Source: a virus
Taxonomy: Duplodnaviria; Caudoviricetes
Virus record (IMG/VR): IMGVR_UViG_3300043093_000048
Location: 201,110-265,109 of that record
Length of the DNA stretch: 64,000 nt
Direction: 5' to 3' (one strand)
Shown here piece after piece: positions 3,645 through 24,840 of the stretch. A program made the translations under genes and the position numbers. The notes below the pieces were generated by a model that searched no databases, was not told the origin of the DNA, and worked only from the letters and a program-made list of their open reading frames with translations. The stretch's first letter is position 1. Each line of letters starts with the position of its first letter.

Positions 3645-3692
3645 TATCCCATAAGGCTTAAATTAATAAAGCCTTATGGGATATTTTTTTTT
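3645..3692 (+). terminator. intrinsic terminator
   Basis: TATCCCATAAGGCTT/AAGCCTTATGGGATA stem plus long T tract. Confidence 0.8.
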
Positions 3693-3717
3693 TGGTTTTG
3701 AGAAATTTCTAATTTTT

Positions 3718-3773: not shown

Positions 3774-6700
3774 ATGGCTGGTTATAAATCTAGTAAAGAA
3801 TTGTTAGACAAAGGAAAAAACAATTTAAAAGAAATGTCTGGACAAAATAAAGATTTAAATGAAACTATCGCTAGTTATTCTGAAGAGGAAACAAGATTAA
3901 ATGCTCCTACAAGTTCTAGAATGCAAGCAATAGCTGTTAGTGAAAAATTTATAAGTTCATTACAAGAAACTTCATCTTTAATAGAACAAACTAATTCTAG
4001 TTTAGTTGGTTTTAAAAGTGCTTTAGAAGGTGTTGCGTCACAAGCTACAACAGCTACAAATTGTTTATTAGCTTCTAACTTAGTAAGCTTAACTCAAATT
4101 AATAGTGTATTAAGTGCTTTTAGAGCGGATTTCTTAATAAATAGCTCTGGCGGAAAAGCTGATGGTACAGGTTATTATGATAAAAATCTTTTAACACAAT
4201 CTTTAAGAGATATTAAAATACAAGATAGGGCTGTATTATCAATATTAAAGTATGTAAATAAAGCTGCTAATTATGCTAATAAATCTTCAAATACTGTTAG
4301 AAGCCAACTTGGTAATAATACTATGGCTAAAGATGATGATGAATCAAATGGTATTATGGATAAACTACTTGGTGGTTTAACACAAGCAAAAGGTCTTGCA
4401 GGTTTAGGAGCATTTCTACAATTAGCTCCAGGAAAAGGAAAGGTTGGTAAAGCTTTAAATAAAATAGGTGGTAAAGCTGCTAATTTTGCACAAGCTGATA
4501 CATCTAGTATAGGTGGATTACTTGAATCATTAATGTCTGATAAACAAAAAGCACAAATTTTAGATCCTTTAAAATCTCTTGGTATGGATTTAGGTAATAA
4601 AAATGACCCTTTAAGCCAAATGCTCGGAGATTTTATGAAAAAGAATGGTCTTTCTAAATCTAAAAAAGAAAAAGAAAAAGACCCTAAATTAGTAATGACA
4701 TCATTAGCTCCTTTTGCAGATGATATTAAAGATATGGTTGAAGTAAAAGTAAAAGCTATGCATGCTAGACCAACTTCAATACCTGATTATGCAACTCCTG
4801 TATGGGTTGTTAATAGTGAAGAACAAACAGACTATGTAAAAAATAAAGATAAAACTAAAGATAAAGAATTAACTAATAAAAGAATTGATGAAATATTCCA
4901 AGGTGTCGCCAATAATACTAAAGATAAATTTGGTAATGATTTATTAACTGCTAACTATGGAGAAAATGGTGTTACATACTCTGGCGTATTAGCTGATAAA
5001 TATAGTAAGGGTAAAAAAGCTGTTAATGCTAGAAATGAATTAAATGATAAACAAAAAGCATCACAGAAAAAAGTTTATGACAGAAACCATGAAGATTCTA
5101 GTTGGGTTGATGAAAATGGTAAAATACAAAAAGGTGGAGGAGATTTTAAACAAGCAGCTGAAGAATTTAGTAAAAGCAGAGGTGCTGCTGATAACTCTGG
5201 TATTTTAGGAGCTGCAGGTAGTTTATTAAGCGGTGATACTGAAGGAGCTTTAAATGTAGCATTACAAAGTATAATGAGCGGTGATGGTATCTCTGGTGCT
5301 TTTGGATATGGTAAAGGTTTATTTAATTTAGGAAAATCTGCTTTTGGTGGCATTAAAGGTTCACATAAAGGTGGTAAAAAGAAAGGAACTGGTAGTAAAC
5401 CATATTTAGTACAAGTTCATGATAATGAAAGAATTCTTGGACCAGATAATGTAGCTGAACAAACAGCAATAAATGATACATCTAAAATACTCGGTATGAC
5501 AATTGGTATGTTAAACTATGGTATTTCATTAACACAAATGAAAAATCAGTTATTTATTAAATATGTCAATAAAGAGAAATTTTCTCCTGAAGAATTACAA
5601 ACTAATAATGAATTATTAGGTGCAGATGCTATTGCACAAATAGGTAAAGTATCTGATGCTTCTGAATATTTAAGAACTATTTCAGATTTAAAACAAAAAT
5701 TATCTGGTAAGAAACAAGATAGACAGCTTGCAGAAAGACTAGATGATGGAAAACAAGAAAAAAAGAAATCTTTAAAAGATATAGTTAAAGAAAAATTAAA
5801 AGATGCTGAAAAAAAATTAAAAGATAAAGTTCAAGACTTCTTAGGTCTAAAAGAGGAAGAGGAGAAAAAAGATAAAGAAGATAAAGAGAAAAAAGTAGAT
5901 GAGAAAAAAGATGAAATAGACCAACAATCTGATGCAGAAGTCTCTGAATATCAAGAAGAAAAAGCACAAGAAGTAGAAGATCAAAAAGAAGAAGCTGAAA
6001 AAAATGCACAAGCACAAGTTGCTGCAAATCAAGAAAAAATAGATCAACAAGTAGAAGATCAAGAAAAAGCACAAGAACAAGAAGGACAAGCACAAGTTGC
6101 TGCAAACCAAGAAAGAATAAATCAAGAAGTTAAGCAAAAAATTGAAGAAGATAATGAAAATGCTGAAGAAAAAAAGAAAATAATTGATAAATATGAAAAT
6201 AAAATTAATGAAGTTGAGAAAAAAAGTAAAATGAAAGCTTTAAAAATAAAAATTAAAGGAACTAAAAAAGCATTAAAAGAAAAAATGAAAGGTGTTAAAG
6301 AAGCTTTTGATCTTTCGATGTTAGCTAATATTGATTTAAGTAATCTTAGTATTGATGGTATAAAAGAAATAATAAAAGATAAAATAAATGATATTAAAAG
6401 AAGTTTAATAAATAAATTAAAAGCAAAAGCTAAAATTATTCTTAAAAGTTTAACAAAGAAAAATCTTATAGAAACTTTAAAAACTGAAAAGACTAATTTA
6501 CTTGAACGTATTAAAGGTATGGCTCATAATGCATCCGATATTATAGAAACTATTGGTACTGGTATGGGTGCAGCAGTAGATGCTTTAGAAGCAGTTCCTA
6601 TAGCAGGTCCAGCCTTAAAATTAGCAGCAGGTATTGCCGCAGGTACAGCAGTTGCAGGAATTGGTTTAGCAATTAAAAAAGCTATTGATAAAGGTAAAGA

Positions 6701-9700
6701 AGCTAATGTAAATGCAGATAAAGAAACTAAAAAATTTGAAAAGACAGCAGATAAAGAAAAAAAGAAAGCAGAAAAAGAACAAGAGAAAAAAGATAAAGAA
6801 AAAGAAAAAGAAGAAAATTCTAAAGCTAAAGCTTCAACAACTCAAGAAAAAGAAAAAGATGATAAAGATATAGATAAAACTAAAGATGAATTAGATAAAT
6901 TTAAAACTGATGATGAAAAAAATGGAAAAGCTAAACCTCATAAAAAAGGTGGTTTATTAGGTGCTTTGCTTGGTGGACCAAAAAATGATTTATTACATTA
7001 TTTAAATAAAAATCAAATAAAAGCTTTAGAAACAGGTTCTAAAAGCAAATTTGCTAATTTAATGCTAAAAGATCCTAAAAAAGCAGCAAATATTATATTT
7101 ATGCTTAATGGTGGACCAATGCTTTTAGGGTTTAAAGATACTAAAACAGAAGATTTAAATAATCTTGAGAGTGTTACAGCTACCAATTCTAATTCAAACT
7201 CTAGTTCTAGTAGTAAAAATACTATTTGGTCTAAATTAAAAAATAAACTTAGTCAAAAGAAATTACTTTCTGATGATTTAAGTGATGAAGGATATTCTGA
7301 GAATATTGATACTGCTGCTTTACAATATGAACAAACTAAAAATAGTGCTAATATAATTTCTGCTTTTGCTAGTGGATTAGGTTTTGCAAAATTAGAAGAT
7401 GACTCAGGAACTTCACTATTTACAACAACTATTAGAAAAACAGCACAGCAAGAAGCTTTAACTAAAAACTTAGGAACAGCAACTGCTGCTTCTACAACTT
7501 CAACTGGTACTACTGCTGCTTCTACAACTTCAACTGATGATGATAGTAGCTCTTCAGACAATCGATTTAATGGTAGTAAATATATTGGCTATGATGAAGA
7601 TGGTACTTGGAGTAATAGTACTACTAATAGTGATATTGATAGTAGTGGTTATTTTTCTAAAAGTAATTCTTCATCGTCAAAAACTTTAGTTACAAAAATA
7701 TTAAATAATAACTGGCTTAAATATAAAAATGATAATAATATAACTGATAGTACAACAACTAATGGTAGTTCTTACCCTAGAAAATTTTTAAATTCTGAAT
7801 ATGATAAAATGTATACTGCATTTATTAGTGGTGTTCCTTTTAGTGGAACAACTTCTAAAAATTATATGCATTCTAAATTAGCAAGTTCTATTAGTGAATC
7901 AGATGCTTGGACTGTTCCAGATTCTATTAAAAACTCAGATACAGAAAAAAATGCTGTAAGAGATTATATAAATAAAAAATCTGGAGTTAAATATACTAAA
8001 TATGGTTTAGGTATTTCTGGGTTATATGGATTAGGTGATGAAAATGATGAAGACTTCTTAGATGCTTCAGGATATGCTCTTTCTAAAGGTTACAAAGAAA
8101 AAGATGGTGGTACTTATCCTCAATTTTTTACTGACTATCTTAAAAAAGATAATATCGAAGTAGAAAATGCTGGAAGTGTTAATAAAATAAAAAATAGATT
8201 AGCTAGTGGTAGTCCAGTAATTCTTATGGGTAAAGATGAATCAGAAAACGGTACAACTCCTTATGGAGCAGAACCTCACTATGTAGTAGCTACTGGATAT
8301 GATGGTAAAAATATTAGAGTAGTTGACTCTGAAAGTACTAATGATTATGATATTTATAATGCTGATAAAGTATTAAGTCATTCATCAATTAAATTAGGAA
8401 CTACTAATAGTAAAAAAGGTAAAGGAAGAAAAGTTAGAAGTAAATCTGGAAGAGCTAGAAAAACTTCAAAAAATAAAAAATATGATAATAAAAGAACAGT
8501 TGGTGGTTCTAGAACATATAGTACAACTATAATAAAATCTGCTTCTGATTACGGTACTTCAAGTTCTTCAAAAATTTCTAATAATTATTCAAAACAAAAT
8601 AATTCTTCTAGAAGAGTTAGTAATAATAGAAGAAAGAGTTATTTAAAATCAGGAAAAGGAAAATATGGAAGAGGTTATGTTGAACAAATTAATGCAAATC
8701 CAGAATTATTAAAAGGTGCTCAAGATGGTTGGACTATGTATGGTATCTTAGCATCAGTAACATTAGCACAGTCTATTATTGAATCTGGTTTTGGTACTTC
8801 TAATTTAGCAAAGAATTATCATAACTGGTTTGGACATACTGCTGGATTTGCTAGTGATAAATATATGACTGGTACATATCAAGGATCACATGAATGGGCT
8901 GTATATGCTTCTGATGGCGACTGCTTTAGAGACCATGCTTATGTATTATCTGGTCAATCAGGTAATACTAGATACATGGCTGCAGTAGGCGAAGCAGATC
9001 CTAGAGCTTCTATTACAGCAATTGAAAATGGTGGTTATTGCGAAGGTGATCCAAATTCTTATATTGATAAAGTAATGAATATTATTGATAGTTATAATTT
9101 AACTCAATTTGATGTAGGCGAGTATAATGGTGTTGCAGCAGGCAGTGGAGCAGTAGTTTATTCTAAGACTTGTTGGACTGGTGACTCACGTACAGAACAA
9201 ATGGCTAATTACTTTAGTGATTTAGAAGTATATGCTACAAAAGGTGGACAAACTATTGATTACTTTAATCAACACTATTCAGAAATTTCTGATAAAGAAG
9301 GCTATAATATTTTCTGTTGGTATGGTGTAAATGGTGCAACAGCATCTGGAGCACAAAAGACAGCAGAAGCTTATAATAAATTAGCTACTGACTTAAAAGG
9401 TAAGTCACAAGTATTCGCTGGTACAATCGGTCATTGTCCCAATGGTACAGGAAGTGGTAAAGTAGAAGGCGGTGCAGGGCAATCTATTGAAACACAAAAT
9501 GAAGGTGTTGTTACATTCAATACTGAATTATTACAGAATCTTTCAAGTGATATTATAGTTATTGATACTTATACTTATATTAAAAGTCTTGAAGATAGTA
9601 TGGGTGCAGAAGCTATGACTACAGATAACTTACATTATACTAAAGAATGTAGTCAAAAAATTAGAGAATATGTAAATCAACAAATTCAAGCAGCTTCAGC

Positions 9701-10379
9701 AACTGCAACTACGGCTACTTCAGATGCAGGTGTTGCTATTGGTGATTTATATGTAACATTAGAAGGTTATGTTGATGCTAAAGATGTTTTATCACAATAT
9801 GCTTCTGGAGATGATATATGGGATGGCGTTTCATCTTATAATTATGCGGATAGCTCGGATTATACATCTACCGCTGCTGCAAATTATGATCCAACAAGTA
9901 GTAGTGAAGATGACGAAACATCTACTGCAACTCCAACAGCTTCTAGCAGTTCTTCATCTACACCAACATCTAGTAGTACACCTTCTTCTAGTGATAGCAC
10001 TTCTAGTTCTACTAGTAGTAGTACTCCATCATCTAGTAGTACACCTTCTTCTAGCGGTAGTACTTCTGGTTCTACTAATAATCCTACTACAACAACCACT
10101 ACTACAACTCCAACAGTATCTACGCCAACTGATAGCAATACATCTACAGAAATATATCAAAGTAATGGTACATTATATGTAGTAAATAATATTGAATATG
10201 GAATTAAAGCTAATATAGCAGATATTCTAAAAGAATTTAATGAATTAAATGACATACAAGATGATAGCTTAGATATATTAAATGTAATATATCAAAAATT
10301 ATTAAAACGTAATGGAAAAAGTAAAAATACAAAAATTGATGGTTATGACTATTCTTTAAAGTATAGAAGATTCGTATAA
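3774..10379 (+). CDS. tail-associated polyprotein / lysin A (tape-measure-like N-terminus; C39-like His/Asp half, GH73 glucosaminidase, SGNH hydrolase)
   Basis: Helical/coiled-coil N-half. PVILMG...PHYVVATGYDG...VVDS (~8040-8400). GILASVTLAQSIIESGFGTSNLA..HNWFGH (GH73, ~8680-9120). GDSRT...GVNG...DNLHY (SGNH, ~9170-9690). S/T-rich linker. Confidence 0.8.
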   Translation: MAGYKSSKELLDKGKNNLKEMSGQNKDLNETIASYSEEETRLNAPTSSRMQAIAVSEKFISSLQETSSLIEQTNSSLVGFKSALEGVASQATTATNCLLASNLVSLTQINSVLSAFRADFLINSSGGKADGTGYYDKNLLTQSLRDIKIQDRAVLSILKYVNKAANYANKSSNTVRSQLGNNTMAKDDDESNGIMDKLLGGLTQAKGLAGLGAFLQLAPGKGKVGKALNKIGGKAANFAQADTSSIGGLLESLMSDKQKAQILDPLKSLGMDLGNKNDPLSQMLGDFMKKNGLSKSKKEKEKDPKLVMTSLAPFADDIKDMVEVKVKAMHARPTSIPDYATPVWVVNSEEQTDYVKNKDKTKDKELTNKRIDEIFQGVANNTKDKFGNDLLTANYGENGVTYSGVLADKYSKGKKAVNARNELNDKQKASQKKVYDRNHEDSSWVDENGKIQKGGGDFKQAAEEFSKSRGAADNSGILGAAGSLLSGDTEGALNVALQSIMSGDGISGAFGYGKGLFNLGKSAFGGIKGSHKGGKKKGTGSKPYLVQVHDNERILGPDNVAEQTAINDTSKILGMTIGMLNYGISLTQMKNQLFIKYVNKEKFSPEELQTNNELLGADAIAQIGKVSDASEYLRTISDLKQKLSGKKQDRQLAERLDDGKQEKKKSLKDIVKEKLKDAEKKLKDKVQDFLGLKEEEEKKDKEDKEKKVDEKKDEIDQQSDAEVSEYQEEKAQEVEDQKEEAEKNAQAQVAANQEKIDQQVEDQEKAQEQEGQAQVAANQERINQEVKQKIEEDNENAEEKKKIIDKYENKINEVEKKSKMKALKIKIKGTKKALKEKMKGVKEAFDLSMLANIDLSNLSIDGIKEIIKDKINDIKRSLINKLKAKAKIILKSLTKKNLIETLKTEKTNLLERIKGMAHNASDIIETIGTGMGAAVDALEAVPIAGPALKLAAGIAAGTAVAGIGLAIKKAIDKGKEANVNADKETKKFEKTADKEKKKAEKEQEKKDKEKEKEENSKAKASTTQEKEKDDKDIDKTKDELDKFKTDDEKNGKAKPHKKGGLLGALLGGPKNDLLHYLNKNQIKALETGSKSKFANLMLKDPKKAANIIFMLNGGPMLLGFKDTKTEDLNNLESVTATNSNSNSSSSSKNTIWSKLKNKLSQKKLLSDDLSDEGYSENIDTAALQYEQTKNSANIISAFASGLGFAKLEDDSGTSLFTTTIRKTAQQEALTKNLGTATAASTTSTGTTAASTTSTDDDSSSSDNRFNGSKYIGYDEDGTWSNSTTNSDIDSSGYFSKSNSSSSKTLVTKILNNNWLKYKNDNNITDSTTTNGSSYPRKFLNSEYDKMYTAFISGVPFSGTTSKNYMHSKLASSISESDAWTVPDSIKNSDTEKNAVRDYINKKSGVKYTKYGLGISGLYGLGDENDEDFLDASGYALSKGYKEKDGGTYPQFFTDYLKKDNIEVENAGSVNKIKNRLASGSPVILMGKDESENGTTPYGAEPHYVVATGYDGKNIRVVDSESTNDYDIYNADKVLSHSSIKLGTTNSKKGKGRKVRSKSGRARKTSKNKKYDNKRTVGGSRTYSTTIIKSASDYGTSSSSKISNNYSKQNNSSRRVSNNRRKSYLKSGKGKYGRGYVEQINANPELLKGAQDGWTMYGILASVTLAQSIIESGFGTSNLAKNYHNWFGHTAGFASDKYMTGTYQGSHEWAVYASDGDCFRDHAYVLSGQSGNTRYMAAVGEADPRASITAIENGGYCEGDPNSYIDKVMNIIDSYNLTQFDVGEYNGVAAGSGAVVYSKTCWTGDSRTEQMANYFSDLEVYATKGGQTIDYFNQHYSEISDKEGYNIFCWYGVNGATASGAQKTAEAYNKLATDLKGKSQVFAGTIGHCPNGTGSGKVEGGAGQSIETQNEGVVTFNTELLQNLSSDIIVIDTYTYIKSLEDSMGAEAMTTDNLHYTKECSQKIREYVNQQIQAASATATTATSDAGVAIGDLYVTLEGYVDAKDVLSQYASGDDIWDGVSSYNYADSSDYTSTAAANYDPTSSSEDDETSTATPTASSSSSSTPTSSSTPSSSDSTSSSTSSSTPSSSSTPSSSGSTSGSTNNPTTTTTTTTPTVSTPTDSNTSTEIYQSNGTLYVVNNIEYGIKANIADILKEFNELNDIQDDSLDILNVIYQKLLKRNGKSKNTKIDGYDYSLKYRRFV
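4371..4574 (+). repeat. 204-bp exact direct repeat, copy 1 (within paralogous tail genes)
   Basis: Identical by eye to 11037-11240; lies inside a ~1.3-kb homology (~4110-5380 vs ~10770-12050). Confidence 0.9.
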
Positions 10380-10403
10380 TTATTGAGATAGGAGTGATAA
10401 GAT

Positions 10404-13400
10404 ATGGCAAATATGAAATCTTCAAAACAGACAGCTAATCAAGCTACTAACAATCTTGATCCAAATATGAGTAAAATAGCTGAGCAAACAAGTGCTATAG
10501 CATCAAGCTTATCTCAACAAAGTAGTTCGATTCAAGCTTTAAAAGATTCTATATCTAGAAAAGAAGCTAGTGATGAAAAATCTAATAAACAAATTACTTC
10601 ATCATTACAAAATTCTGATAAATATATACTTTCTATTAATACTAATTTAAAAAATATGAATCAAACAATAAGCTCTATGTCAAGTGTTGTATCTAATATG
10701 ACAATGAATAGTAGTGCTACAGTATCATTGTTAGGTTCTATTCAAACAAGTTTAGTACAAATTACAAGCGTATTAGCAGCTTTTAGATCAGATTATTTAT
10801 TAGTAAGTAGTGGTAATAAAGCAGATGGTACAGGTTATTATGATATGAACCTCTTAAAAGAAATTGGCAGTTCTTTAAGAGGTGTTAAAAGTGCTGAATT
10901 ACAAAGACAAATTAGTTCAATTATTAAAGCTGCTAATTATGCTAATATGGCTTCTAATTCCGTTAGAAGTAAGCTTGGTAATAAAAATATGGCTAAAGAT
11001 GGTGATGAACCAACAGGTGCTATAGATAAATTATTAGGTGGTTTAACACAAGCAAAAGGTCTTGCAGGTTTAGGAGCATTTCTACAATTAGCTCCAGGAA
11101 AAGGAAAGGTTGGTAAAGCTTTAAATAAAATAGGTGGTAAAGCTGCTAATTTTGCACAAGCTGATACATCTAGTATAGGTGGATTACTTGAATCATTAAT
11201 GTCTGATAAACAAAAAGCACAAATTTTAGATCCTTTAAAAAGTTTAGGAATGGACTTAAAAGGTAAAAATGATCCTTTAAGCCAAATGCTTGCTTCTTTT
11301 ATGGATAAAAATGGATTATCAAAAGATAAAAAAGAAAAAGAAAAAGATCCTAATCTAGTTTGGTCGGCTTTAGCTCCTTTTGCAGATGATATTAAAGATA
11401 TGGTTGAAATGTCTTATGAAGGAGTTAAAAAAAGACCTAAAGCTATTCCTATATATGCTACACCTGTATGGGTGGTTAATAGTAAAGATCAAAATAATTA
11501 TGTAGATCATTCTAAAGGAACTAATGAAAAAGATTTACTTAATAAAAGAATTGATGAAATATTCCAAGGTGTTGCTAATAATACTAAAGATAAATTTGGT
11601 AATGATTTATTATCCATTAACCAAGGTGATAATGGTACAACATACTCTGGCGTATTAGCTGATAAATATAGTAAGGGTAAAAAAGCTGTTAATGCTAGAA
11701 ATGAATTAAATGATAAAAGAAATGCTGCTAATAAAAAAGTTTATGATAGAAATCATGAAGACTCTAGTTGGGTTGATGAAAATGGTAAAATACAAAAAGG
11801 TGGAGGAGATTTTAAACAAGCAACTGAAGAATTTAGCGGTATTAATGGTGCAGCAGGCAATTCTGGTATTTTAGGTGCAGCTGGTAGTTTATTAAGTGGC
11901 GATACTGAAGGAGCTTTGAATGTAGCATTACAAAGTATAATGAGTGGTGATGGTATCTCTGGTGCTTTTGGTTACGGTAAAGGTTTATTTAAAATGGGAA
12001 AAGCTGCTTTTGGTGGCATTAAAGGTTCACATAAAGGTGGTAAAAAAGGTAAAGGTGTAGATCCACGTAAAAAAAATGATAAAAACTCTTATGAAAATAG
12101 AGATGAAACTACTAATGAGCATGAAGTAACTCCTATTACTGCAGAAACTACTATTTTAAATGAAAAAGATACTAAAGAAGCTAAAACTAATAGAGATATT
12201 TTAACAGGACAAATTACTGTAGCAGGTGCTATTAATGCTTTAGTAGATATGAGCACACAAGAAAATATTTATTTAAGTCAAGCTGTAAATGATGGCAAAG
12301 TTGATCCAACTAAAGTTAAAAAATATCCAAGTTCTTTTGATAGTTTAATAAAATTAGCTTCTTCTTTAAAAATAGATAAAGCAGGTTTAAAAGCTATTAG
12401 TCAATTTAAAAAAGTTTCTGATTTAACTAAAGTTATTAAAAAACCTAAAAATAAAACTATGACAACTTCTGAATATTTTTATGGCAAAACTCCTGAAGAA
12501 TTAGAAGAAGAAAATAATGAAAAAGAAGGAGAAGAAAAGAAAGAAACTCCACTCGAAAAACTTATGAATAAAATTAATGACAAGAAAAAAGATATTACTG
12601 ATAAATTAAAGGATAAAGTTACAGGTAAATTAAAAGATAAAGTTATGCCTAAAGCTAAAGAATTAGGAAAAAAAGTATTAAATAAAGTTGAGAATAAGTT
12701 TGGAATGGCAGCAGGATCTGTAGGTAAAAAAATTAAATCTATGAAAGATATGAAAAAAAATTTTGAGGATAAAGTAGATAAAAAAGTAGATGCTGCTCTT
12801 GATAAAGGTATGGATTTAGCTGCAAAAGGTGCTAAAAAAGTTGGTGGTGCTTTAGTAGGTCTTGGTAAAAAAATGGCTAATAAAATGAAAAAGAAAAAAG
12901 ACCCAAATGCCGAACTTGAGAAAATGTATGAAGACCAATTAAAAGCTAAACAAGATGTTGGTGAAAAAGAAAAGGAAGCTGCAGAATATGCAGTAGCTAA
13001 AGAAAAGGAAGCTGCAGAAGATGCAGCAGCTAAAGAAAAAGAAACAGCACAGGAAATATCGGATGAAGAAAAGAAGGCTGCAGAAGAAAGAGAAAAAACT
13101 AGAAAAGAAAATGAAGAAAAGCTTAAAGAAAAAAGAGAACAAGCACAGAAACAAGAAATAGAACATGAACAAGCTGCTGCAGATGCTGAACTAGCAGTTA
13201 AAACAACAACTGCTGAAACTGAAGGAGCAGTTCAAGAAGCTGCTGCTACTGGTGAATCTGGTTTTAGTATTACTGGTGCTATTAAAAATGCTATAACAAA
13301 AGTTTCTGGTTTGCCATTGCCTGCTAAAATAGCATTAGGTGCTGCTGGTGTTGCTGCAGTAGGTGCTTTAGGAGCAAAGTTAATTAAGAAAATTAAAAAA

Positions 13401-16400
13401 ATGGCATCAGGCAAAGGTGGAAAAGGTTCTGGAGATTCTGGTGGCAGTGAAGCAAAAGCTTCAGTTAGTAAAGATGCTACAAAAGCTGCTAAAAAAGAAC
13501 AAAAGAAACAAGAAAAAGAACAAAAGAAACAAGAAAGAAAAGAAAAAAGAGAAAAAGCTAAAAAGAAAATAAAAAGAGGTGCAAGATCTTTTCTTAATAG
13601 ATTAACTGGTGGATTAACTGCTGCAAAAGTTTATGTAGATGAAAATGGTGATGTTTTAAAATCTAAAGGTGACGAACCAATCATGATGTTAGATGATAAT
13701 GGCGATGAAACAGACCAAACTTTAAATGTTAAAGATAGTGATGGTAAAAAGCAGTTTCTTAAAAGATTAATGAAAAGAGAATTTAAAATAGATAAAGGTA
13801 AAGCTCTTAAACAAGCTTTAAATAAAATTAAAAATAAAGCTAAAGAAAAAATAGAAGCTGCTAAAGAAAAAATATCTGAAGGTAAAGAAAATGCTAAATC
13901 TTCTTTAAAAAAAGGTCTTGGAATTGCAGGAAAAATAGGTCTTGGATTAATAGGTGGTCCAGGTGCTTTAATTGCAGGTGGTTTAGCTAAAAAAGCTATT
14001 GGTGGATTAACTAAAAAGAAAAATGAAAAAGCCGATAAATTAAATCAATTATTATTAATGTCATCTTCTGCTTATTTATTCATGGATTCTAAACTTCAAG
14101 AACAATTAGAAAATATTGAAAATAGTGATTTTGGTAAATTAATAAATGAAAATCCACAACAAGCTTCTAGCTTATTATTTAGTACTGCTGCAAGTAGTCT
14201 TAATAGTATAATTAGTGGTGTATCAGATGTTACAAGTGATTTATCGTCTGTTGTAAGTAGCTTAGTCGATAAGGTTACTGGTGATGATGAAGAAACTAAA
14301 GCTAAGTCTGCATATTCTTCAGACTTATCGGATGGCTCTTTCAGTGAAAGTGCTACAGTTGCTTATGCACAGATGAATGAACGTAATAATAATAATGAAG
14401 TATTAAACTCTTTTGCTAAAAGTATAGTCGGAACAGCTTCTACTGCTAGTGATAATGGTAATGCAATGACTACTTCTAAATTAGTTAATTCAGAAAGAAA
14501 AAATAATGCTGTAAAAATTGGTGTAGTAGATGGTGTGGCAGGAAGTTCAGCAACAGCTTCTAGCGGTAATGGTGGTGCAGGTGTCTTAGCTGCAACAGCT
14601 CAAGTCTGTGTAGCTTATAACAACGCAGGTATTACTGGTAAAGAAGGTGACTATAATCAAGATGGCTTAACCCTTGATATTAATGTTGGTGGGCAAACTA
14701 TTAATACTAGACCTGACTGTACTGGTTTGATTGATGCTGTACTTGAATATATGGGTTATGATTCTGAAAAAATGAATTCTCTTAAATTTAAAGAATGCTC
14801 AGGTATTAAAGACTCTTCTGGTAATATTTCTACAGACTGGACTCTTATTGATAGCCCTGAATTAACTGATATTCAAGCAGGCGATATTTGTATCGTAAAT
14901 AGTAATGGTAATCACCATGGTGAAATTGCTGCTGGTCCTATTGATGATAGTGGTACATTATATGGATTTAACTATGGTTGGGAAACAGGTATGAAAAGAT
15001 CAAATGCTGCTGCAGCAGAAGCTTTAGCAGGCACTGATTATTTAACTGCTTGTATTAACAATAGTTCTACAATTAATGGACATAAATATTATGACCGTAT
15101 TATTAGATATAATGTTGCTACAACTACTAACTCTAATTCATCTTCTTCTGCTTCTGTATCAGCAGGTATGTCAGCTGATACATTCTTTATTAATGATTTA
15201 GGATTAGATTCTTCTAATCCAACATCTAGAGGATTCTCTGCACATAAAGGTACTGACTATAGAGCAGCTTCTGGTACAGCAGTTCATACACCAACAGGTG
15301 GTACTGTTGTTAAAGCTACTAAGGATCAAGCATCTATTTCATCATCTATGGGTAGATATGTAATAATTAAAGATAATGATGGTAACTATTGGAGATATAT
15401 GCATTTTAGCGCTATACCTTCTGTTGCTACTGGAGATAGTTTAACACCTGGTCAACTTATTGGTTATTCAGGTGGAGATACTAGTGACCCTTATAGAGGT
15501 GATTCTACTGGAGCACATCTTCACGTAGACTTATCATCATCAAGCACAGTTGATGGCAAGAATAATAATATGATGGATGTACAAAAGTATACTTTAACTG
15601 GTAAAGGTAGATCAAGTAATAATCATATTTATCAAAGAGATTATTCTAATTATATTTATAATACCGATAAAGACTCTGAATTACAAACATTAGGTGACTC
15701 TGGTTGTGGACCTGCTGCAGCAACTGCTGTTAAAAGATATTATGTCGGAAGAGGTCTTAAGAAGTATGGTGGAGATAAAGAAGATGATACAACTACAACT
15801 GATACAACAACAGCAACTGCTTCTGAAGATACAACTGATACAAATACTGCAACAGATAGTACAGCAGATGCATCTACAACACAAAAAACTGCAACTGTTG
15901 GTGAATCAGTAACAGTTGTTGATGAGAAATTTAATCATACTTATGAATTAACTTTACAACAATGTCATATAGATGTATGGAATGGAATAAAAGCTGCAGG
16001 ACTTACTGACGAAGCTGCTTGTGGTGTTTTAGGTAACTTTCTATCAGAATGTGGTAGCGGTGACTGGAACGAAGAAGTTGCTAAAGGTAAAACAGGTTAT
16101 GGCGGTGGTCTTATGCAATGGACTCCTTATACTAAGCACCAAAATTGGTGTACTTCAAATGGTTATAGTGGTAAAGATACTACAATGGAAGCAAATATAG
16201 CTCATGTCGTTTATGCTTTACAAAATGAAGGTAACTTCTCAAATCCAGCAAGTGCTGATCCTTCTTTAGCTTCACAAGGTTATAATCCTGTAAGTTCTTA
16301 TGAAGAATTTAAAGCTTTAACTAGTGTAGAAGATGCAGCAGTTAACTATGAAAGAATTTACGAAGTATCATATAACTGGAATGGTAAAACTAGCGAAAAT

Positions 16401-17399
16401 GCACATGCTCTTGAAGATTGGGAAATGTATGATAGACCTAGAGTATATCACGCTATATGTTTCTATAATTTACTCTGTGGTACATATAAAGGCGGTACAA
16501 CATCAGGTTCTACTTCTGCTGTTTCAGGAAATCTTGGTTTAACTGGTTATATTAATTTAATTACAGATAGCGCAGTTGATGGTTCTTCATTATCTAGCTA
16601 TTTATCTGGTTCTAATATCTGGGATACATCTTCAAGTTCATCTTCAGATAGTAGTGATGGTAGTACAGATAGTAGTACAACTTCAACTGATAGTAATTCA
16701 TCTTCAGGGTCTGGTAGAGGAAAACGAAGATTTGCTAGAAGTCATAAAAGAAATGGAAAAGGTAAATATGGTTTTGGTATTACAAGTGAAGATTCAGTAG
16801 GATTTGCTAATACACACTTCGTTGCAGCAGGTAGTGATGATGATTCTTCAACAGATAGCACAACTTCTTCAAGTAGTTCTTCTAGTGATAGTTCTTCATC
16901 AGCATCTCCTTCAAGTAGTTCTTCTTCAAGCAGTAGTAGCTCATCATTAAATAATACATCAAGCAGTAGTACAAATTCATCTAATAATAATAGTAGTAGT
17001 TCTTCAAGTAGTAGTACTCCTTCTACAAATTCATCTAATAGTTCTTCATTAAGTGCAACAATAGATTCTTATATTAAAAATAAAATGACACTAACTGATG
17101 TAGATAGTAATGGTAATAAATCTTCAACTACTAATATATATACTAGTGATAATAAAACTACTTTAACAACTAATGGTAAAACTACTATAGTAATTTGTAA
17201 TAATTTTGCTGAAAAATCAACAACTGATTTAAGTAATATATTAACTAATTTTAAACGTTTAAATGGAACACAAAACAATGCATTAAAAGTATTAAACGCT
17301 ATTTCAGATTTAATTAAAGAAGAAAATACTAGCGAAGATGGAATAACTAAATTAAGATTAGATAATGATGGATTAGATTATATATTAAAAGGATTATAA
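10404..17399 (+). CDS. tail-associated polyprotein / lysin B (paralogue of 3774; NlpC/P60-like amidase, M23 peptidase, C39-like Cys half, phage-tail lysozyme)
   Basis: RPDCTGLI...GDICI...HHGEI (NlpC/P60/CHAP-like). HKGTD...YMH...STGAHLH (M23). YQRD...GDSGCGPAAA (C39-like N-half). AACGVLGNFLSECG...GLMQWT (phage tail lysozyme family). Confidence 0.8.
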   Translation: MANMKSSKQTANQATNNLDPNMSKIAEQTSAIASSLSQQSSSIQALKDSISRKEASDEKSNKQITSSLQNSDKYILSINTNLKNMNQTISSMSSVVSNMTMNSSATVSLLGSIQTSLVQITSVLAAFRSDYLLVSSGNKADGTGYYDMNLLKEIGSSLRGVKSAELQRQISSIIKAANYANMASNSVRSKLGNKNMAKDGDEPTGAIDKLLGGLTQAKGLAGLGAFLQLAPGKGKVGKALNKIGGKAANFAQADTSSIGGLLESLMSDKQKAQILDPLKSLGMDLKGKNDPLSQMLASFMDKNGLSKDKKEKEKDPNLVWSALAPFADDIKDMVEMSYEGVKKRPKAIPIYATPVWVVNSKDQNNYVDHSKGTNEKDLLNKRIDEIFQGVANNTKDKFGNDLLSINQGDNGTTYSGVLADKYSKGKKAVNARNELNDKRNAANKKVYDRNHEDSSWVDENGKIQKGGGDFKQATEEFSGINGAAGNSGILGAAGSLLSGDTEGALNVALQSIMSGDGISGAFGYGKGLFKMGKAAFGGIKGSHKGGKKGKGVDPRKKNDKNSYENRDETTNEHEVTPITAETTILNEKDTKEAKTNRDILTGQITVAGAINALVDMSTQENIYLSQAVNDGKVDPTKVKKYPSSFDSLIKLASSLKIDKAGLKAISQFKKVSDLTKVIKKPKNKTMTTSEYFYGKTPEELEEENNEKEGEEKKETPLEKLMNKINDKKKDITDKLKDKVTGKLKDKVMPKAKELGKKVLNKVENKFGMAAGSVGKKIKSMKDMKKNFEDKVDKKVDAALDKGMDLAAKGAKKVGGALVGLGKKMANKMKKKKDPNAELEKMYEDQLKAKQDVGEKEKEAAEYAVAKEKEAAEDAAAKEKETAQEISDEEKKAAEEREKTRKENEEKLKEKREQAQKQEIEHEQAAADAELAVKTTTAETEGAVQEAAATGESGFSITGAIKNAITKVSGLPLPAKIALGAAGVAAVGALGAKLIKKIKKMASGKGGKGSGDSGGSEAKASVSKDATKAAKKEQKKQEKEQKKQERKEKREKAKKKIKRGARSFLNRLTGGLTAAKVYVDENGDVLKSKGDEPIMMLDDNGDETDQTLNVKDSDGKKQFLKRLMKREFKIDKGKALKQALNKIKNKAKEKIEAAKEKISEGKENAKSSLKKGLGIAGKIGLGLIGGPGALIAGGLAKKAIGGLTKKKNEKADKLNQLLLMSSSAYLFMDSKLQEQLENIENSDFGKLINENPQQASSLLFSTAASSLNSIISGVSDVTSDLSSVVSSLVDKVTGDDEETKAKSAYSSDLSDGSFSESATVAYAQMNERNNNNEVLNSFAKSIVGTASTASDNGNAMTTSKLVNSERKNNAVKIGVVDGVAGSSATASSGNGGAGVLAATAQVCVAYNNAGITGKEGDYNQDGLTLDINVGGQTINTRPDCTGLIDAVLEYMGYDSEKMNSLKFKECSGIKDSSGNISTDWTLIDSPELTDIQAGDICIVNSNGNHHGEIAAGPIDDSGTLYGFNYGWETGMKRSNAAAAEALAGTDYLTACINNSSTINGHKYYDRIIRYNVATTTNSNSSSSASVSAGMSADTFFINDLGLDSSNPTSRGFSAHKGTDYRAASGTAVHTPTGGTVVKATKDQASISSSMGRYVIIKDNDGNYWRYMHFSAIPSVATGDSLTPGQLIGYSGGDTSDPYRGDSTGAHLHVDLSSSSTVDGKNNNMMDVQKYTLTGKGRSSNNHIYQRDYSNYIYNTDKDSELQTLGDSGCGPAAATAVKRYYVGRGLKKYGGDKEDDTTTTDTTTATASEDTTDTNTATDSTADASTTQKTATVGESVTVVDEKFNHTYELTLQQCHIDVWNGIKAAGLTDEAACGVLGNFLSECGSGDWNEEVAKGKTGYGGGLMQWTPYTKHQNWCTSNGYSGKDTTMEANIAHVVYALQNEGNFSNPASADPSLASQGYNPVSSYEEFKALTSVEDAAVNYERIYEVSYNWNGKTSENAHALEDWEMYDRPRVYHAICFYNLLCGTYKGGTTSGSTSAVSGNLGLTGYINLITDSAVDGSSLSSYLSGSNIWDTSSSSSSDSSDGSTDSSTTSTDSNSSSGSGRGKRRFARSHKRNGKGKYGFGITSEDSVGFANTHFVAAGSDDDSSTDSTTSSSSSSSDSSSSASPSSSSSSSSSSSSLNNTSSSSTNSSNNNSSSSSSSSTPSTNSSNSSSLSATIDSYIKNKMTLTDVDSNGNKSSTTNIYTSDNKTTLTTNGKTTIVICNNFAEKSTTDLSNILTNFKRLNGTQNNALKVLNAISDLIKEENTSEDGITKLRLDNDGLDYILKGL
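11037..11240 (+). repeat. 204-bp exact direct repeat, copy 2
   Basis: Identical by eye to 4371-4574. Confidence 0.9.
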
Positions 17400-17404
17400 T
17401 AAAA

Positions 17405-17439
17405 ATAAGCTTAAAGGAATCCATTTCCTTTAAGCTTAT
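17405..17439. terminator. long intergenic hairpin (terminator or processing stem)
   Basis: ATAAGCTTAAAGGAA/TTCCTTTAAGCTTAT stem with no clear T tract. Confidence 0.5.
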
Positions 17440-19638: not shown

Positions 19639-20853
19639 TTGTTTACCACTTATATGAATGAAAATATTTCTTTAACTGAAGAAATATATCCTATATTTAT
19701 TTTACTAACAAGAGGAAAAAGTATTATTAGTGGACCAATTAGTAAAATAACTAAATCTCCTTTTACACATTGTTCAATAAGTTTAGATCCTAAACTTAGA
19801 TATTTCTATAGCTTTAATTTTTTAGATAAATTTAATCGAGGTTTTGTAAAGGAAACTAGACAAAGCTTAACAAAAAATACAAATTCAACTAATATTTCAG
19901 TATTTTTTGTTAATAAAGTAATATATAAAAATATTAATAGAAATCTTAAATTTTTTAGTGATAATAAGGATAAAACTAAATATAGTTTTAAGAGATTATT
20001 TGAAGCAGCTTTTAATAAAGGAAAAGAAAAAAATCCTTATGAACAAGTATGTTCTTCATTTGTATACTCTATATTGAAAAATGCAGGTGTACAATTAGCT
20101 CCAGATAATATAAAATGTGTAAAACCTTCTGATATAGCAAAAACAGTAATTAACAATAATAAATATATCTATGAAATTTTTGATGGTCCAATATTAGATT
20201 TAAATACAGATGATATTACATTAAAAATAGAAAAATTAAAAAACTCTTCTAAATCTAGATTATATAATCAAGATAAAATAGTTTTAGAAGAAAGCATCCA
20301 TCCAGAAACTGTTGATCGTTCTAATTATGATAACTTTACTTTATATGGTTTATTTCATATTTATACTACTAATTTTTCTTTAAGAAACGATCCAAAATTT
20401 TTAGAGAATATGAAATGGGTTAAAGAACGTATAGAAGAAATTTGTAAAATGGCTGGATGGATAGCTTTTCCTTATGAATTAACTTTATGTGATACTTTTG
20501 ATGATTTAAATGTATTTTATAATTATGAAGCTCCTATATGGGTAACAGGATTTACATATGGTGATAAAGTATATATGAAAGCACCAAATATTTATCCAGG
20601 TACTCTCTATTATAATGTAGTATTACATGAATGTATACATGTTCAAATATATTTAAATGAAAAAGTTAAAGGAAAATTTATTAGTAGAGAAGATGAAGAA
20701 GGAATGGCAGTTTTCTTTAGTACACCATTGGATGTTTGGCTTAGAGAACTTAATCACGGTCCAAATTGGTATTATTATGAAAGTTCTATAAGAGTTCAAG
20801 ATGATTTTATGCGTGGTGGAATGGAATATGTTAAAGAAAAACGATTTATTTAA
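19639..20853 (+). CDS. two-domain protease-like protein: permuted papain/NlpC-P60 (YiiX-like) domain plus HExxH zincin
   Basis: ISKITKSPFTHCSISLD...CSSFVYSIL (His before Cys, permuted order); VVLHECIH...EEGMA (gluzincin); AAGGAGG RBS with TTG start. Confidence 0.7.
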   Translation: MFTTYMNENISLTEEIYPIFILLTRGKSIISGPISKITKSPFTHCSISLDPKLRYFYSFNFLDKFNRGFVKETRQSLTKNTNSTNISVFFVNKVIYKNINRNLKFFSDNKDKTKYSFKRLFEAAFNKGKEKNPYEQVCSSFVYSILKNAGVQLAPDNIKCVKPSDIAKTVINNNKYIYEIFDGPILDLNTDDITLKIEKLKNSSKSRLYNQDKIVLEESIHPETVDRSNYDNFTLYGLFHIYTTNFSLRNDPKFLENMKWVKERIEEICKMAGWIAFPYELTLCDTFDDLNVFYNYEAPIWVTGFTYGDKVYMKAPNIYPGTLYYNVVLHECIHVQIYLNEKVKGKFISREDEEGMAVFFSTPLDVWLRELNHGPNWYYYESSIRVQDDFMRGGMEYVKEKRFI

Positions 20854-22173: not shown

Positions 22174-22574
22174 CTTTTTTATTTAGACTATATCTTCAAC
22201 TGTAATAACAGTTGTCTCCTGTTTCCATTTAAGGGATTTTCACCCACTATAAAAGCCGTACTCTTATTGCTTATTTCAAAGCTACTCACAAATAAAATTA
22301 TTATTTATTTGCTTTCAGATAGTCGTTGAACGTTTATCTTAAGACTTCTTAAGATACTTCGCTGCTGATTAACCATTATTTCAAAGTACTTAGGATCTTA
22401 AACTTTCATTTAAGACTTTTATTTCACCATATACTATCTTAACTATTTTTTCTGTCTTTCGACTGCATTCACACTTAGAGTTACCTCTTATGTTGTAGCT
22501 AGTTAAGCTTTAGGAACTTCCAGCAATTAAGGAGATAAAACCACTATATCACTATAATGGCTGAGCCAAAGTTA
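22174..22574 (-). ncRNA. group I self-splicing intron (IA2-like), no homing endonuclease ORF
   Basis: Minus strand: exon ends ...GGGU; P AAUUGCUGGAA (22518-22528), Q AAUCAGCAGC (22361-22370), R GUUCAACGACUA (22320-22331), S AAGAUAUAGUCU (22185-22196); terminal G at 22174; removal restores the reading frame. Confidence 0.93.
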
Positions 22575-24788
22575 ACCCGTTTTCATATTACGTTTATTTA
22601 TATCTAAACTATAAGTATTCTTTTTGCTAAGCATCTGCTGTAGTCTTCTTAAGTTTATATATAAAATAGGAACTTTATATCTAGTTCTTATTGGATTTTC
22701 TTCATGACCATCATGTCTATAATAAAGATATTCTTCAGTAGGAACTTTAAGATAATCTAAAGCTTCTTTACAATCTTTAATTCTAGGACAATTTTTATTA
22801 GGCAATACTTCAAGATAAAAATTCTTCTTATCATCTAAAATAAGATCTTTAATATATTTATCAAATTTCTCATCTGACATTGATTTAAATAAGTTTTTAT
22901 ATTTTTGAGTGTTAGCACCTGTTTTATCTAAAATATCAAAGACTTTATAAACTTTTTCTTCAATTTGTTTTCTTTTATTAGCATTAATAGCTTCATTTAA
23001 TACTAATTGATCCTTATTAGATTCATTAATACTTTCAAATAAAGTAAAAGGTAAATCAGGATTATCAATTTTTCTATATTCATCAGTTGCTTCTATTTTA
23101 TCAGCTAATAAGAAATTTCTACATTCTATTCTTAAATCAGTTATATTTAATTTTCTTTTAACATAATTAATCATAGCCATTTCAATTCCTTGAAGCTTAT
23201 AATCAGAACTAGCTTCTAAAGCTACAACTGTTTTAATGGTTCTATTTAAAGCAGTTTGTAAATTATAAATTTTATCTTCAATTATAATATATCCTGCTAT
23301 ATTTTCGTTACTATCAATAAACATAAAACCATGTTGATTTCCAGGAAGTTTTTGACAATTTCTTAATTTATAATGTGTTTTACCATATTTAAATAAATTC
23401 TGTGGTGTCATTTCTTTAATGTCAAATTCAGATATAATACTATCTTTGAAATCTTGCTCATCTTGAACTGTATTAGTATAAATAAAGTTTTCTTTTTGTT
23501 TATTATTTAAATCTATTAATCTAGTTAAGAATTCTTTATTATCTTTAGAATTATTCAAAATAAACTTTAAAACACTGTCAGTTAAACCCTCAATAGTAAT
23601 AAATAGATTATCATAATTATCTTCATTATAAACTTCATTTAATACACTATACATATCTTCAATAGAATCAAATTCATTAATACCTTTCATTATATTATCA
23701 TTACATTCAATATAATATATAGAATCTTCTATTTGGAATGTAGGAATTAATGAAGTGGTTTCACCTAATGAATATACATTCATTTTAGGATTATATCCTA
23801 ATTCATATAGCTTATTAAATACTGAACTAGATCTTTGTGCAGCTATATTTAATCCAACAGCATTTGGAGCTATTGCACCTTCTTTAATAATTGAAAAATA
23901 ATCATAGACATCTTCATAATTATTAAAATCAAAATTTTCTAATAAAGGACTTTCATCATTATTAATATATTTATCTAAGAACTCTTTAGAAGTTAAATAA
24001 ATATCTATTCTATCCTCTCCATACCTTTCAAAATTTAAATCCATTTCAATTGATTGGAAATTTAATAATCTAGTATCATAATCAATTATATCAATATTAG
24101 GAACATGAATTAATTCAAAGATATGTAATAAATAATTTATAGCTGCATATTCATAATAAGTCTTTTTAACTTTAATATCATCTAATAAATTCCAATTAAT
24201 AGAATTATATAATGAAAATAAATCAGAAATATCATATGAACTACTAAACTCTTCAAGATTTCTTAAGAATCTTTCATAAGTTTCATCAGGAACAATTTTG
24301 TTACATACTTTTATTCTATAATCTTTTAATACTGAATTATTATCTTTATCAAAATCCTGTAAGATGTTTTTATAAGAAATTTCAGTTAATTTAAACTTTA
24401 AACAATCTTTAACATCAGGAACTATACCAAAAGTATTATTAATATAATCATTATCCCATGTAATACAAAGATTAGTAAGTATATTCATATTATTAACATT
24501 TTTAAATATAGGAACTACACTTAATACATGATAAGATCTATTATTATTCCTAATAAGATAATTTCTATTATAACTTTGAGAGAATGGTAATTTATCTTGT
24601 ACTGATATAAATGAATCATAATGAATAAAATCATCAGGATCATTTAATTTAGGAATATCAAAATAATTTTTAATACGATTTGATTCAGCATAATTTAAAT
24701 GGTCATTGCAAATAGGACAAGGTGTTTCCAATAATGAACCATCAAATATAGAATTACACGTATTACATTTACAATATAAGTATCCCAT
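22575..24788 (-). CDS. exon 1 of virion RNAP beta C-terminal subunit, with ~600-aa N-terminal extension (Zn-ribbon, GNAT-like region)
   Basis: ATG 24788 with GAGGTGA RBS and late promoter. C-terminal VPILYINLRRLQQMLSKKN...RNMKTG|QVT corresponds to the beta C-terminal conserved region. N-terminal CxxC...CxxC. Spliced product is 840 aa. Confidence 0.8.
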
Positions 24789-24815
24789 AGTTATATTCAC
24801 CTCTTTTAAAAAATA

Positions 24816-24827
24816 TAAAATATTGTT
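24816..24827 (-). promoter_or_regulatory. late promoter AACA-N6-TA
   Basis: Minus strand AACA ATATTT TA, 28 nt upstream of ATG 24788. Confidence 0.65.
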
Positions 24828-24840
24828 GACGTGCAAATAA

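Follow-up and report, generated by a model that had tools for sequence, protein, structure and literature searches.

Complementary halves of a C39-type peptidase domain in two tandem giant tail proteins of an uncultivated jumbo phage

Introduction

Can two pieces of one peptidase domain, each embedded in a different giant structural protein, still make a working enzyme? The question is raised by two neighboring genes, here called A and B, in the last 64 kb (64,000 nucleotides, hereafter the window) of the IMG/VR jumbo-phage record IMGVR_UViG_3300043093_000048. The record measures 265,109 bp and is rated 100% complete; the phage is uncultivated and is known as this metagenomic record. Gene A (3774..10379, + strand) encodes a giant tail protein of 2201 residues and gene B (10404..17399, + strand) one of 2331 residues, as read from the list of open reading frames (ORFs), their translations and synteny and, for A, from the depositor annotation of its counterpart in another phage.

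The original prediction, made from the letters of the window, was that A and B are paralogues which each lost the reciprocal half of a C39-like cysteine peptidase after duplication, with every catalytic residue kept, and that the protease is restored in trans when both assemble into the tail, acting as an assembly-gated maturation switch. All coordinates on which it was built (the genes and the Gln, Cys, His and Asp codons) and the translations are correct. Following it up with profile searches, a comparison of relatives and structure prediction, we could keep the complementary, constrained halves and their predicted co-folding, and we had to give up the maturation switch. Judging from the sequences, we consider it probable (roughly 60%) that the halves of A and B rebuild a working peptidase in trans.

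Results

The Peptidase_C39_2 profile (PF13529) matches A at residues 1437-1519, covering only profile positions 56-142 of 143 (E 1.4e-8, 35.9 bits against a cut-off of 24), when residues 1395-1560 are scanned alone. B gives a weak match to the N-terminal part of the same profile, below the cut-off (17.2 bits, E 1e-3). A search of the whole 265-kb genome with PF13529 returned just these two places and no other match, and whole-protein Pfam and PHROG scans of A and B do not report the domain, which appears once the segments are scanned alone. With a custom profile built from eight intact relatives only, residues 1735-1783 of B (15606..15752, + strand) occupy positions 3-53 (40.8 bits) and residues 1425-1545 of A (8046..8408, + strand) positions 54-175 (134.3 bits), with no overlap and no gap. 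Joined in silico in N-to-C order, the two pieces make one end-to-end domain that scores 177.7 bits against this profile. By its sequence and predicted fold, the domain belongs to Peptidase_C39_2.

The complete Gln/Cys/His/Asp set is absent from either chain. The catalytic Cys1768 (codon 15705) and the glutamines Gln1744 (codon 15633) and Gln1761 (codon 15684) are found in B only, and His1502 (codon 8277-8279) and Asp1518 (codon 8325-8327) in A only. We looked for a full set within each protein and found none: A is free of Cys from residue 98 to 1716, and B lacks His from residue 1769 to 1844, over the 76 residues that follow the Cys helix. Since the profile positions abut and these regions are devoid of Cys and His, respectively, the pieces of A and B are exact complements, neither of which has a hidden partner in cis. 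Lacking a complete catalytic set in one chain, the product of A or B alone is, as far as the sequence tells, no C39 peptidase, and neither piece can be catalytic by itself. Of the two glutamines, Gln1761, 7 residues ahead of Cys1768, is present in 15 of 16 sequences, and its distance from the Cys makes it no less plausible than Gln1744 as the oxyanion Gln.

Both junctions look as they had been described. In A, a double Y-G-L-G motif (residues 1410-1421, 8001..8036, + strand) directly precedes the C-half, which begins after YGLGISGLYGLG. In B, the N-half ends in Y-Y-V-G-R-G (residues 1779-1784, 15738..15755, + strand) at the end of the Cys helix, equivalent to the loop that follows helix 38-51 in the modeled intact relative. 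There the protein passes into a T/D-rich low-complexity linker (15756..15953, + strand), which stands in place of the missing C-half and has an identity of only 0.17 to the orthologues.

Searches with each half revealed relatives of three kinds. Twelve A-like sequences have the C-half only (51-100% identity in the half), seven B-like proteins, plus three read from their loci, have the N-half only, and eight single giant proteins of 3116-3786 residues contain the whole domain. In 7 of the 7 contigs with readable DNA (the window, L006, L007, L012, L013, L014 and L015), an A-like gene with only the C-half immediately precedes a B-like gene with only the N-half, and the same gene pair occurs in three further contigs known without their DNA. 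The break point is at the identical place in all split members. No match to the C-half or to the N-terminal block of A and B was found with tblastn among 50,697 GenBank phages, and no member of the split clade is in culture.

A profile search of 1.84 billion representative proteins retrieved 4969 clusters of relatives at E<=1e-3, of which 451 reached E<=1e-30. Both halves are adjacent in 148 of the 148 best of the 4969 clusters, mostly in proteins of 3000-6000 residues; the split forms score below the best 150, and this figure says nothing on how frequent the split is. Because the best relatives are all intact, the whole domain is, on this comparison, the rule and the split the derived state. 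In the intact proteins the domain is accompanied by Phage_lysozyme2 and CHAP or by M23 and glucosaminidase. The giant single gene of four contigs (L008-L011) lies upstream of a distant homologue of the virion protein that follows B and is, judged by position, the counterpart of A plus B. Among the 148 best representatives, none combines an N-terminal block of the A/B type with an intact domain, as a pre-split intermediate would; a reciprocal loss after duplication is what we infer from the sequences, with the pre-split state missing from this set.

Are the two halves maintained or are they decaying? Across orthologues, the mean identity to the window protein is 0.72 in the N-half versus 0.17-0.27 in its flanks, and 0.66 in the C-half versus 0.14-0.15. 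Both halves form sharper conservation peaks than the M23, lysozyme and glucosaminidase domains. The Cys and Gln1744 are invariant in 16 of 16 sequences, as is the His in 18 of 18, and the Asp is present in 17 of 18. Around the nucleophile, only two positions of the Q-T-L-G-D-S-G-C-G-P core differ among the nine split phages (G to A before the Asp in P0011 and G to A after the Cys in L015). The pairwise ratio of non-synonymous to synonymous substitution rates (dN/dS, NG86 method) is below 1 in all 20 pairs (0.16-0.87 for the N-half, with 0.84-0.87 in two pairs, and 0.27-0.70 for the C-half), but these values are noisy and inflated by AT-biased codon use, so that we give more weight to relative conservation.

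In a maximum-likelihood tree of the C-halves, the split forms make up one side of a branch with 98/99 support. Their branches are no longer than those of the intact forms, and the split clade spans more than 1 substitution per site. The conservation peaks, the kept catalytic residues, dN/dS below 1 and a single unaccelerated clade together argue for one ancient split that has been maintained since. Neutral decay of the halves in relatives would have spoken against the original prediction; we found constraint on both. Its view of A and B as carriers of two halves of one ancestral domain is borne out by the complementary profile matches and the conserved residues, and the domain is whole in the single-copy homologues with which a comparison had been proposed.

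The AlphaFold2 model of the intact domain of L008 is a confident one, with a predicted local distance difference test (pLDDT) score of 91.4. Compared with solved structures using Foldseek, it is most similar to PeiR (8z4h), a pseudomurein endoisopeptidase that is the best match, to ComA PEP (3k8u) and to PCAT1 (E 4e-6 to 1e-5, TM-scores 0.57-0.60); by sequence, the PDB yielded nothing beyond weak, partial matches to papain-like toxins. In this model, which has a papain-like fold, helix 38-51 begins with the invariant Cys and packs on the His-bearing sheet; the loop just behind this helix is where the split forms are broken. As the break falls in this loop, the N-piece would comprise the N-terminal strand and the nucleophile helix and the C-piece all the rest, and the split site appears structurally benign.

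We then turned to a complex prediction of the A half with the B half. With both alignments it scored 0.89, against 0.01 for the best of three controls, where the score mark is reached by 58 of 80 solved complexes and by 2 of 110 mismatched pairs; at least 89% of the contacts agree between runs, and the partner pLDDT is at least 75. In the predicted complex, residues 32-47 of B, belonging to the Cys helix, touch residues 83-86 of A, including the His. The A half reaches a pLDDT of 88 together with the B half and ~60 with unrelated partners. Docking is thus predicted, though the pass may be the model's memory of single-chain papain folds, in which case it shows the likeness of a matching pair and not binding.

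What sort of proteins carry the halves? A and B lie head to tail on the + strand, separated by a 24-nucleotide spacer with an AGGAG ribosome-binding site and without a terminator (10380..10403, + strand). A terminator-like hairpin with a T-run, read from the sequence, lies upstream of A (3648..3693, + strand) and a 15-bp hairpin directly 3' of B (17405..17439, no strand assigned). The short terminator-free spacer and hairpins found only outside the pair suggest that A and B form one co-transcribed unit.

The proposed paralogy was confirmed by BLASTP: the N-terminal ~480 residues of A (57-524, 3942..5345, + strand) and B (62-536, 10587..12011, + strand) are 72% identical, with long near-identical runs. 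A C-terminal block of ~80 residues is also common to both (32% identity), and the remainder is unrelated. Near-identical N-terminal blocks next to unrelated middles would suggest gene conversion or shared assembly partners.

The halves are surrounded by cell-wall hydrolase modules. A has a Glucosaminidase domain (residues 1649-1776, 8718..9101, + strand; PF01832, E 2.4e-23). B has a Peptidase_M23 domain just upstream of the N-half (residues 1613-1711, 15240..15536, + strand; PF01551, E 1.9e-16) and a Phage_lysozyme2 domain (residues 1857-1992, 15972..16379, + strand; PF18013, E 1.4e-17), the latter also following the intact C39 domain in single-gene relatives such as P0003. The gene after B matches phrog_20401, a virion structural protein (E 6.5e-70); among cultured phages, homologues of it occur in Listeria phage LPJP1, the jumbo phages of Staphylococcus, and Bacillus AR9/PBS1. 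A and B are the positional counterparts of, respectively, the "tape measure protein" and "tail lysin" genes of Staphylococcus phage PB50. Given the adjoining conserved virion gene and the synteny with PB50, A and B may fairly be called jumbo-phage tail proteins, by position and predicted annotation only.

Several other features of these proteins and of the window deserve mention. Residues 1785-1975 of A (9126-9698) have an identity of 0.42 across A-like proteins and no Pfam match, and residues 1385-1610 of B form a Cys-containing module, also without a Pfam match. The modules are shuffled, orthologues differing by whole domains. The place of B 1385-1610 is taken in the B-like proteins P0006 (L007 4373-12031, residues ~1560-1800), P0010, P0011 and P0012 by another Cys/His-rich module of ~250 residues, again without a Pfam match, and entire enzyme modules have been swapped between these orthologues. 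In L007 (~10200-10430, P0006 residues ~1920-1995), a linker of ~38 residues starting T-L-T-G-K-G-K-Y-N-I-P is exactly duplicated in tandem just before the N-half.

Basic [KR]-[YF]-G-x-G motifs stand at the borders of the enzyme modules, at 8001-8036, 8661-8675, 15738-15755 and 16764-16778 of the window (A residues 1410, 1418 and 1631; B residues 1780 and 2122), and are also found in relatives. In the 148 intact giants, [YF]GxG was observed 955 times versus 339 expected from shuffles. The idea that Y-G-x-G tracks the C39 domain was rejected, the motif being enriched in PB50 proteins that have no such domain. That the Y-G-R-G of the loop was a self-cleavage site preceding the genetic split was dropped as well, since 38 of 129 intact domains have [YF]GxG in that loop.

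Farther along the window, an RNA-polymerase-beta-like ORF (phrog_3233, phrog_23439) adjoins two giant ORFs of 3502 and 2947 residues (22572-24836 and 24879-35387 on the - strand, 37056-45899 on the + strand), as would suit a phage of the AR9/phiKZ type that encodes multisubunit RNA polymerases of its own. An ORF of the tail module (19639-20853) has a weak match to the enoyl-CoA hydratase/ClpP-like family phrog_1128 (E 2.7e-9) and is 68-70% conserved in L006, L007 and L014.

Discussion

The explanation that we favor starts from a papain-fold domain of the C39_2 type which is found undivided in a very large family of giant phage tail proteins and which would have been split between the co-transcribed A and B in this clade of phages resembling AR9 and the Staphylococcus jumbo phages. 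B would have kept the first ~50 residues, i.e. the N-terminal strand and the helix with the nucleophile Cys1768 and the Gln, while the other ~120 residues, among them His1502 and Asp1518, would have stayed in A. Most likely, the two pieces associate without a covalent bond through packing of the Cys helix of B on the sheet of A, and the two-chain enzyme would be rebuilt where A and B are side by side, in the tail or after ejection. Its substrate would be a peptide bond of the cell wall, cut during infection, as suggested by the M23, lysozyme, glucosaminidase and CHAP neighbors of the domain; cleavage of the linkers of A and B themselves seems less likely.

The Peptidase_C39_2 family has been counted among the lysin catalytic domains of phages of Gram-positive hosts (PMC8223927). 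Because of this listing, the hydrolase neighbors and PeiR as the top structural match, we favor a wall-cutting peptidase of the tail lytic cassette over a maturation switch. One may go further and suppose that the split was selected because it keeps both giant proteins free of proteolytic activity while they are made, chaperoned and threaded into the tail, so that an active peptidase would arise only once the two C-terminal cassettes emerge jointly from the tail at the host wall. To this extension we give rather little credence.

Several points weigh against a working two-chain peptidase. All members of the split group are metagenomic, and dN/dS is only moderately low and comes from short segments in a very AT-rich genome. 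The conserved halves are also compatible with a purely structural docking role, and a complex score of this kind is to be expected whenever a known fold is cut in two, so that it does not distinguish a living pair from a dead one. The proximity of the halves in the tail is assumed, A and B being multi-domain proteins of more than 2000 residues each. Finally, PB50, a cultured relative with the same gene pair, does without the C39 domain, which is thus dispensable for the tail plan.

If the halves do meet and act, the rebuilt peptidase could instead cut A, B or other virion proteins at the basic Y-G-x-G linkers and so free or activate enzyme modules after tail assembly, as the original prediction would have it. 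A, B and their relatives contain the [YF]GxG motif 3-5 times as often as shuffled sequences do, and its sites are at module borders; around two thirds of the intact domains are closely flanked on both sides by such a motif, and two of the structural neighbors, ComA PEP and PCAT1, are double-glycine leader peptidases. The motif is, however, equally enriched in the PB50 pair, which has no C39 domain (3 observed versus 0.96 expected, and 4 versus 0.77), and the Y-G that closes the Cys helix is typical of the family as a whole. The domain neighbors are all wall hydrolases, there are no known cleavage products, and nothing, including the match to PeiR, points to a maturation substrate. We regard such a switch as unlikely. 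No better placed, in our estimate, is a press-stud without catalysis, in which the halves hold A and B in register and the catalytic residues persist as buried structural positions. The predicted co-folding, the strict co-occurrence of the pair and the N- and C-terminal blocks common to A and B, which suggest shared assembly partners, would all agree with this, but pure docking does not demand a near-invariant Q-T-L-G-D-S-G-C-G-P core, and the split clade has kept its Cys, His, Gln and Asp over a depth of more than 1 substitution per site.

It is less probable still that the pieces never meet and are independent remnants, with unrelated local roles or in slow decay, whose complementarity is an accident of module shuffling. 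Such shuffling is free enough for orthologues to differ by whole domains, and the two N-half pairs with dN/dS of up to 0.84-0.87 would suit slow decay. Against this, the halves are the sharpest conservation peaks of their regions, are paired in 7 of 7 contigs, break at an identical point in all members and sit on branches that are not accelerated. A lone Cys helix, or a sheet without its central helix, is also unlikely to be stable, and the C-half is modeled at a pLDDT of ~60 without its partner. An artefact, be it misassembly, a frameshift or a rearrangement of RNA or DNA that restores a single domain, hardly comes into consideration: at least 7 assemblies made independently from different samples, with 56-78% identity, show the same arrangement, and with the C-half first and the N-half ~2500 codons later in another gene, splicing or read-through cannot yield the N-to-C order. 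Read-through, splicing and misassembly were rejected on these two grounds.

If the halves reassemble, A and B would provide a natural peptidase of papain fold whose two fragments are encoded within separate structural proteins, and a clean case of paralogues made mutually dependent by reciprocal loss of sub-domains. The pair would also be built-in evidence that the two giant tail proteins sit together and, with pieces of ~50 and 120 residues, a small natural split-protease pair for protein engineering. Were activity in addition confined to the joint exit of both cassettes at the host wall, it would be an AND-gated enzyme that nature has built from a pair of structural proteins, and an orthogonal split protease ready for use. 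For annotation the locus is a warning, as each half alone is missed or misread, Pfam seeing only the C-half and that only in a segment scan. Full-text literature searches returned no account of phage tail proteins with a split papain-fold peptidase.

How does the pair compare with known systems? Closest in sequence are the intact C39_2 domains of giant tail proteins (L008-L010; P0003, P0008 and P0009), which are 36-47% identical in the C-half and 27-45% in the N-half and share the catalytic motifs, the Phage_lysozyme2 neighbor and the syntenic position upstream of the same virion protein. Theirs is one continuous stretch, whereas here the domain is cut after the Cys helix and spread over two proteins with the C-part encoded first. 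ComA PEP, PCAT1 and PeiR, the best structural matches, have the same papain-type layout of Gln/Cys and His/Asp, but they are single-chain domains with a sequence identity of 14-16%. Unlike the C39 bacteriocin-processing peptidases of ATP-binding cassette (ABC) exporters, A and B have no ABC transporter and no double-glycine or other leader-peptide system in their context, which is a tail-gene module with wall hydrolases.

Similar predicted tape measure and tail lysin annotations have been given for Staphylococcus phage DC4 (PMC10638138). The tandem "tape measure protein" and "tail lysin/tail lysozyme" genes of PB50, DC4 and AR9/PBS1 resemble A and B in being a pair upstream of a homologous virion protein (33% identity) and in encoding proteins of ~1900-2000 residues with M23 and lysozyme modules. 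They are without the C39 halves, and their names are depositors' predictions.

Enzymes made from separately encoded fragments are otherwise tolerated in this group of phages: in phiKZ/AR9-type jumbo phages, the beta/beta' subunits of the multisubunit RNA polymerase are encoded by split genes. Those fragments are collinear and free-standing, whereas here a domain of 170 residues is divided into pieces that are embedded in other proteins and encoded in reversed order. The nearest functional analogy known to us would be the lysosomal cathepsins of the papain family, e.g. cathepsin B, which occur in two-chain forms with the Cys in the light chain and the His in the heavy chain. As proposed for A and B, a papain fold is there made of two polypeptides, a short N-terminal one with the nucleophile and a long one with the His. 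The two chains of a cathepsin are produced when a single folded precursor is nicked by proteolysis, and a disulfide links them, whereas the chains of A and B come from separate genes, are embedded in proteins of 2200-2300 residues and would meet only after their synthesis.

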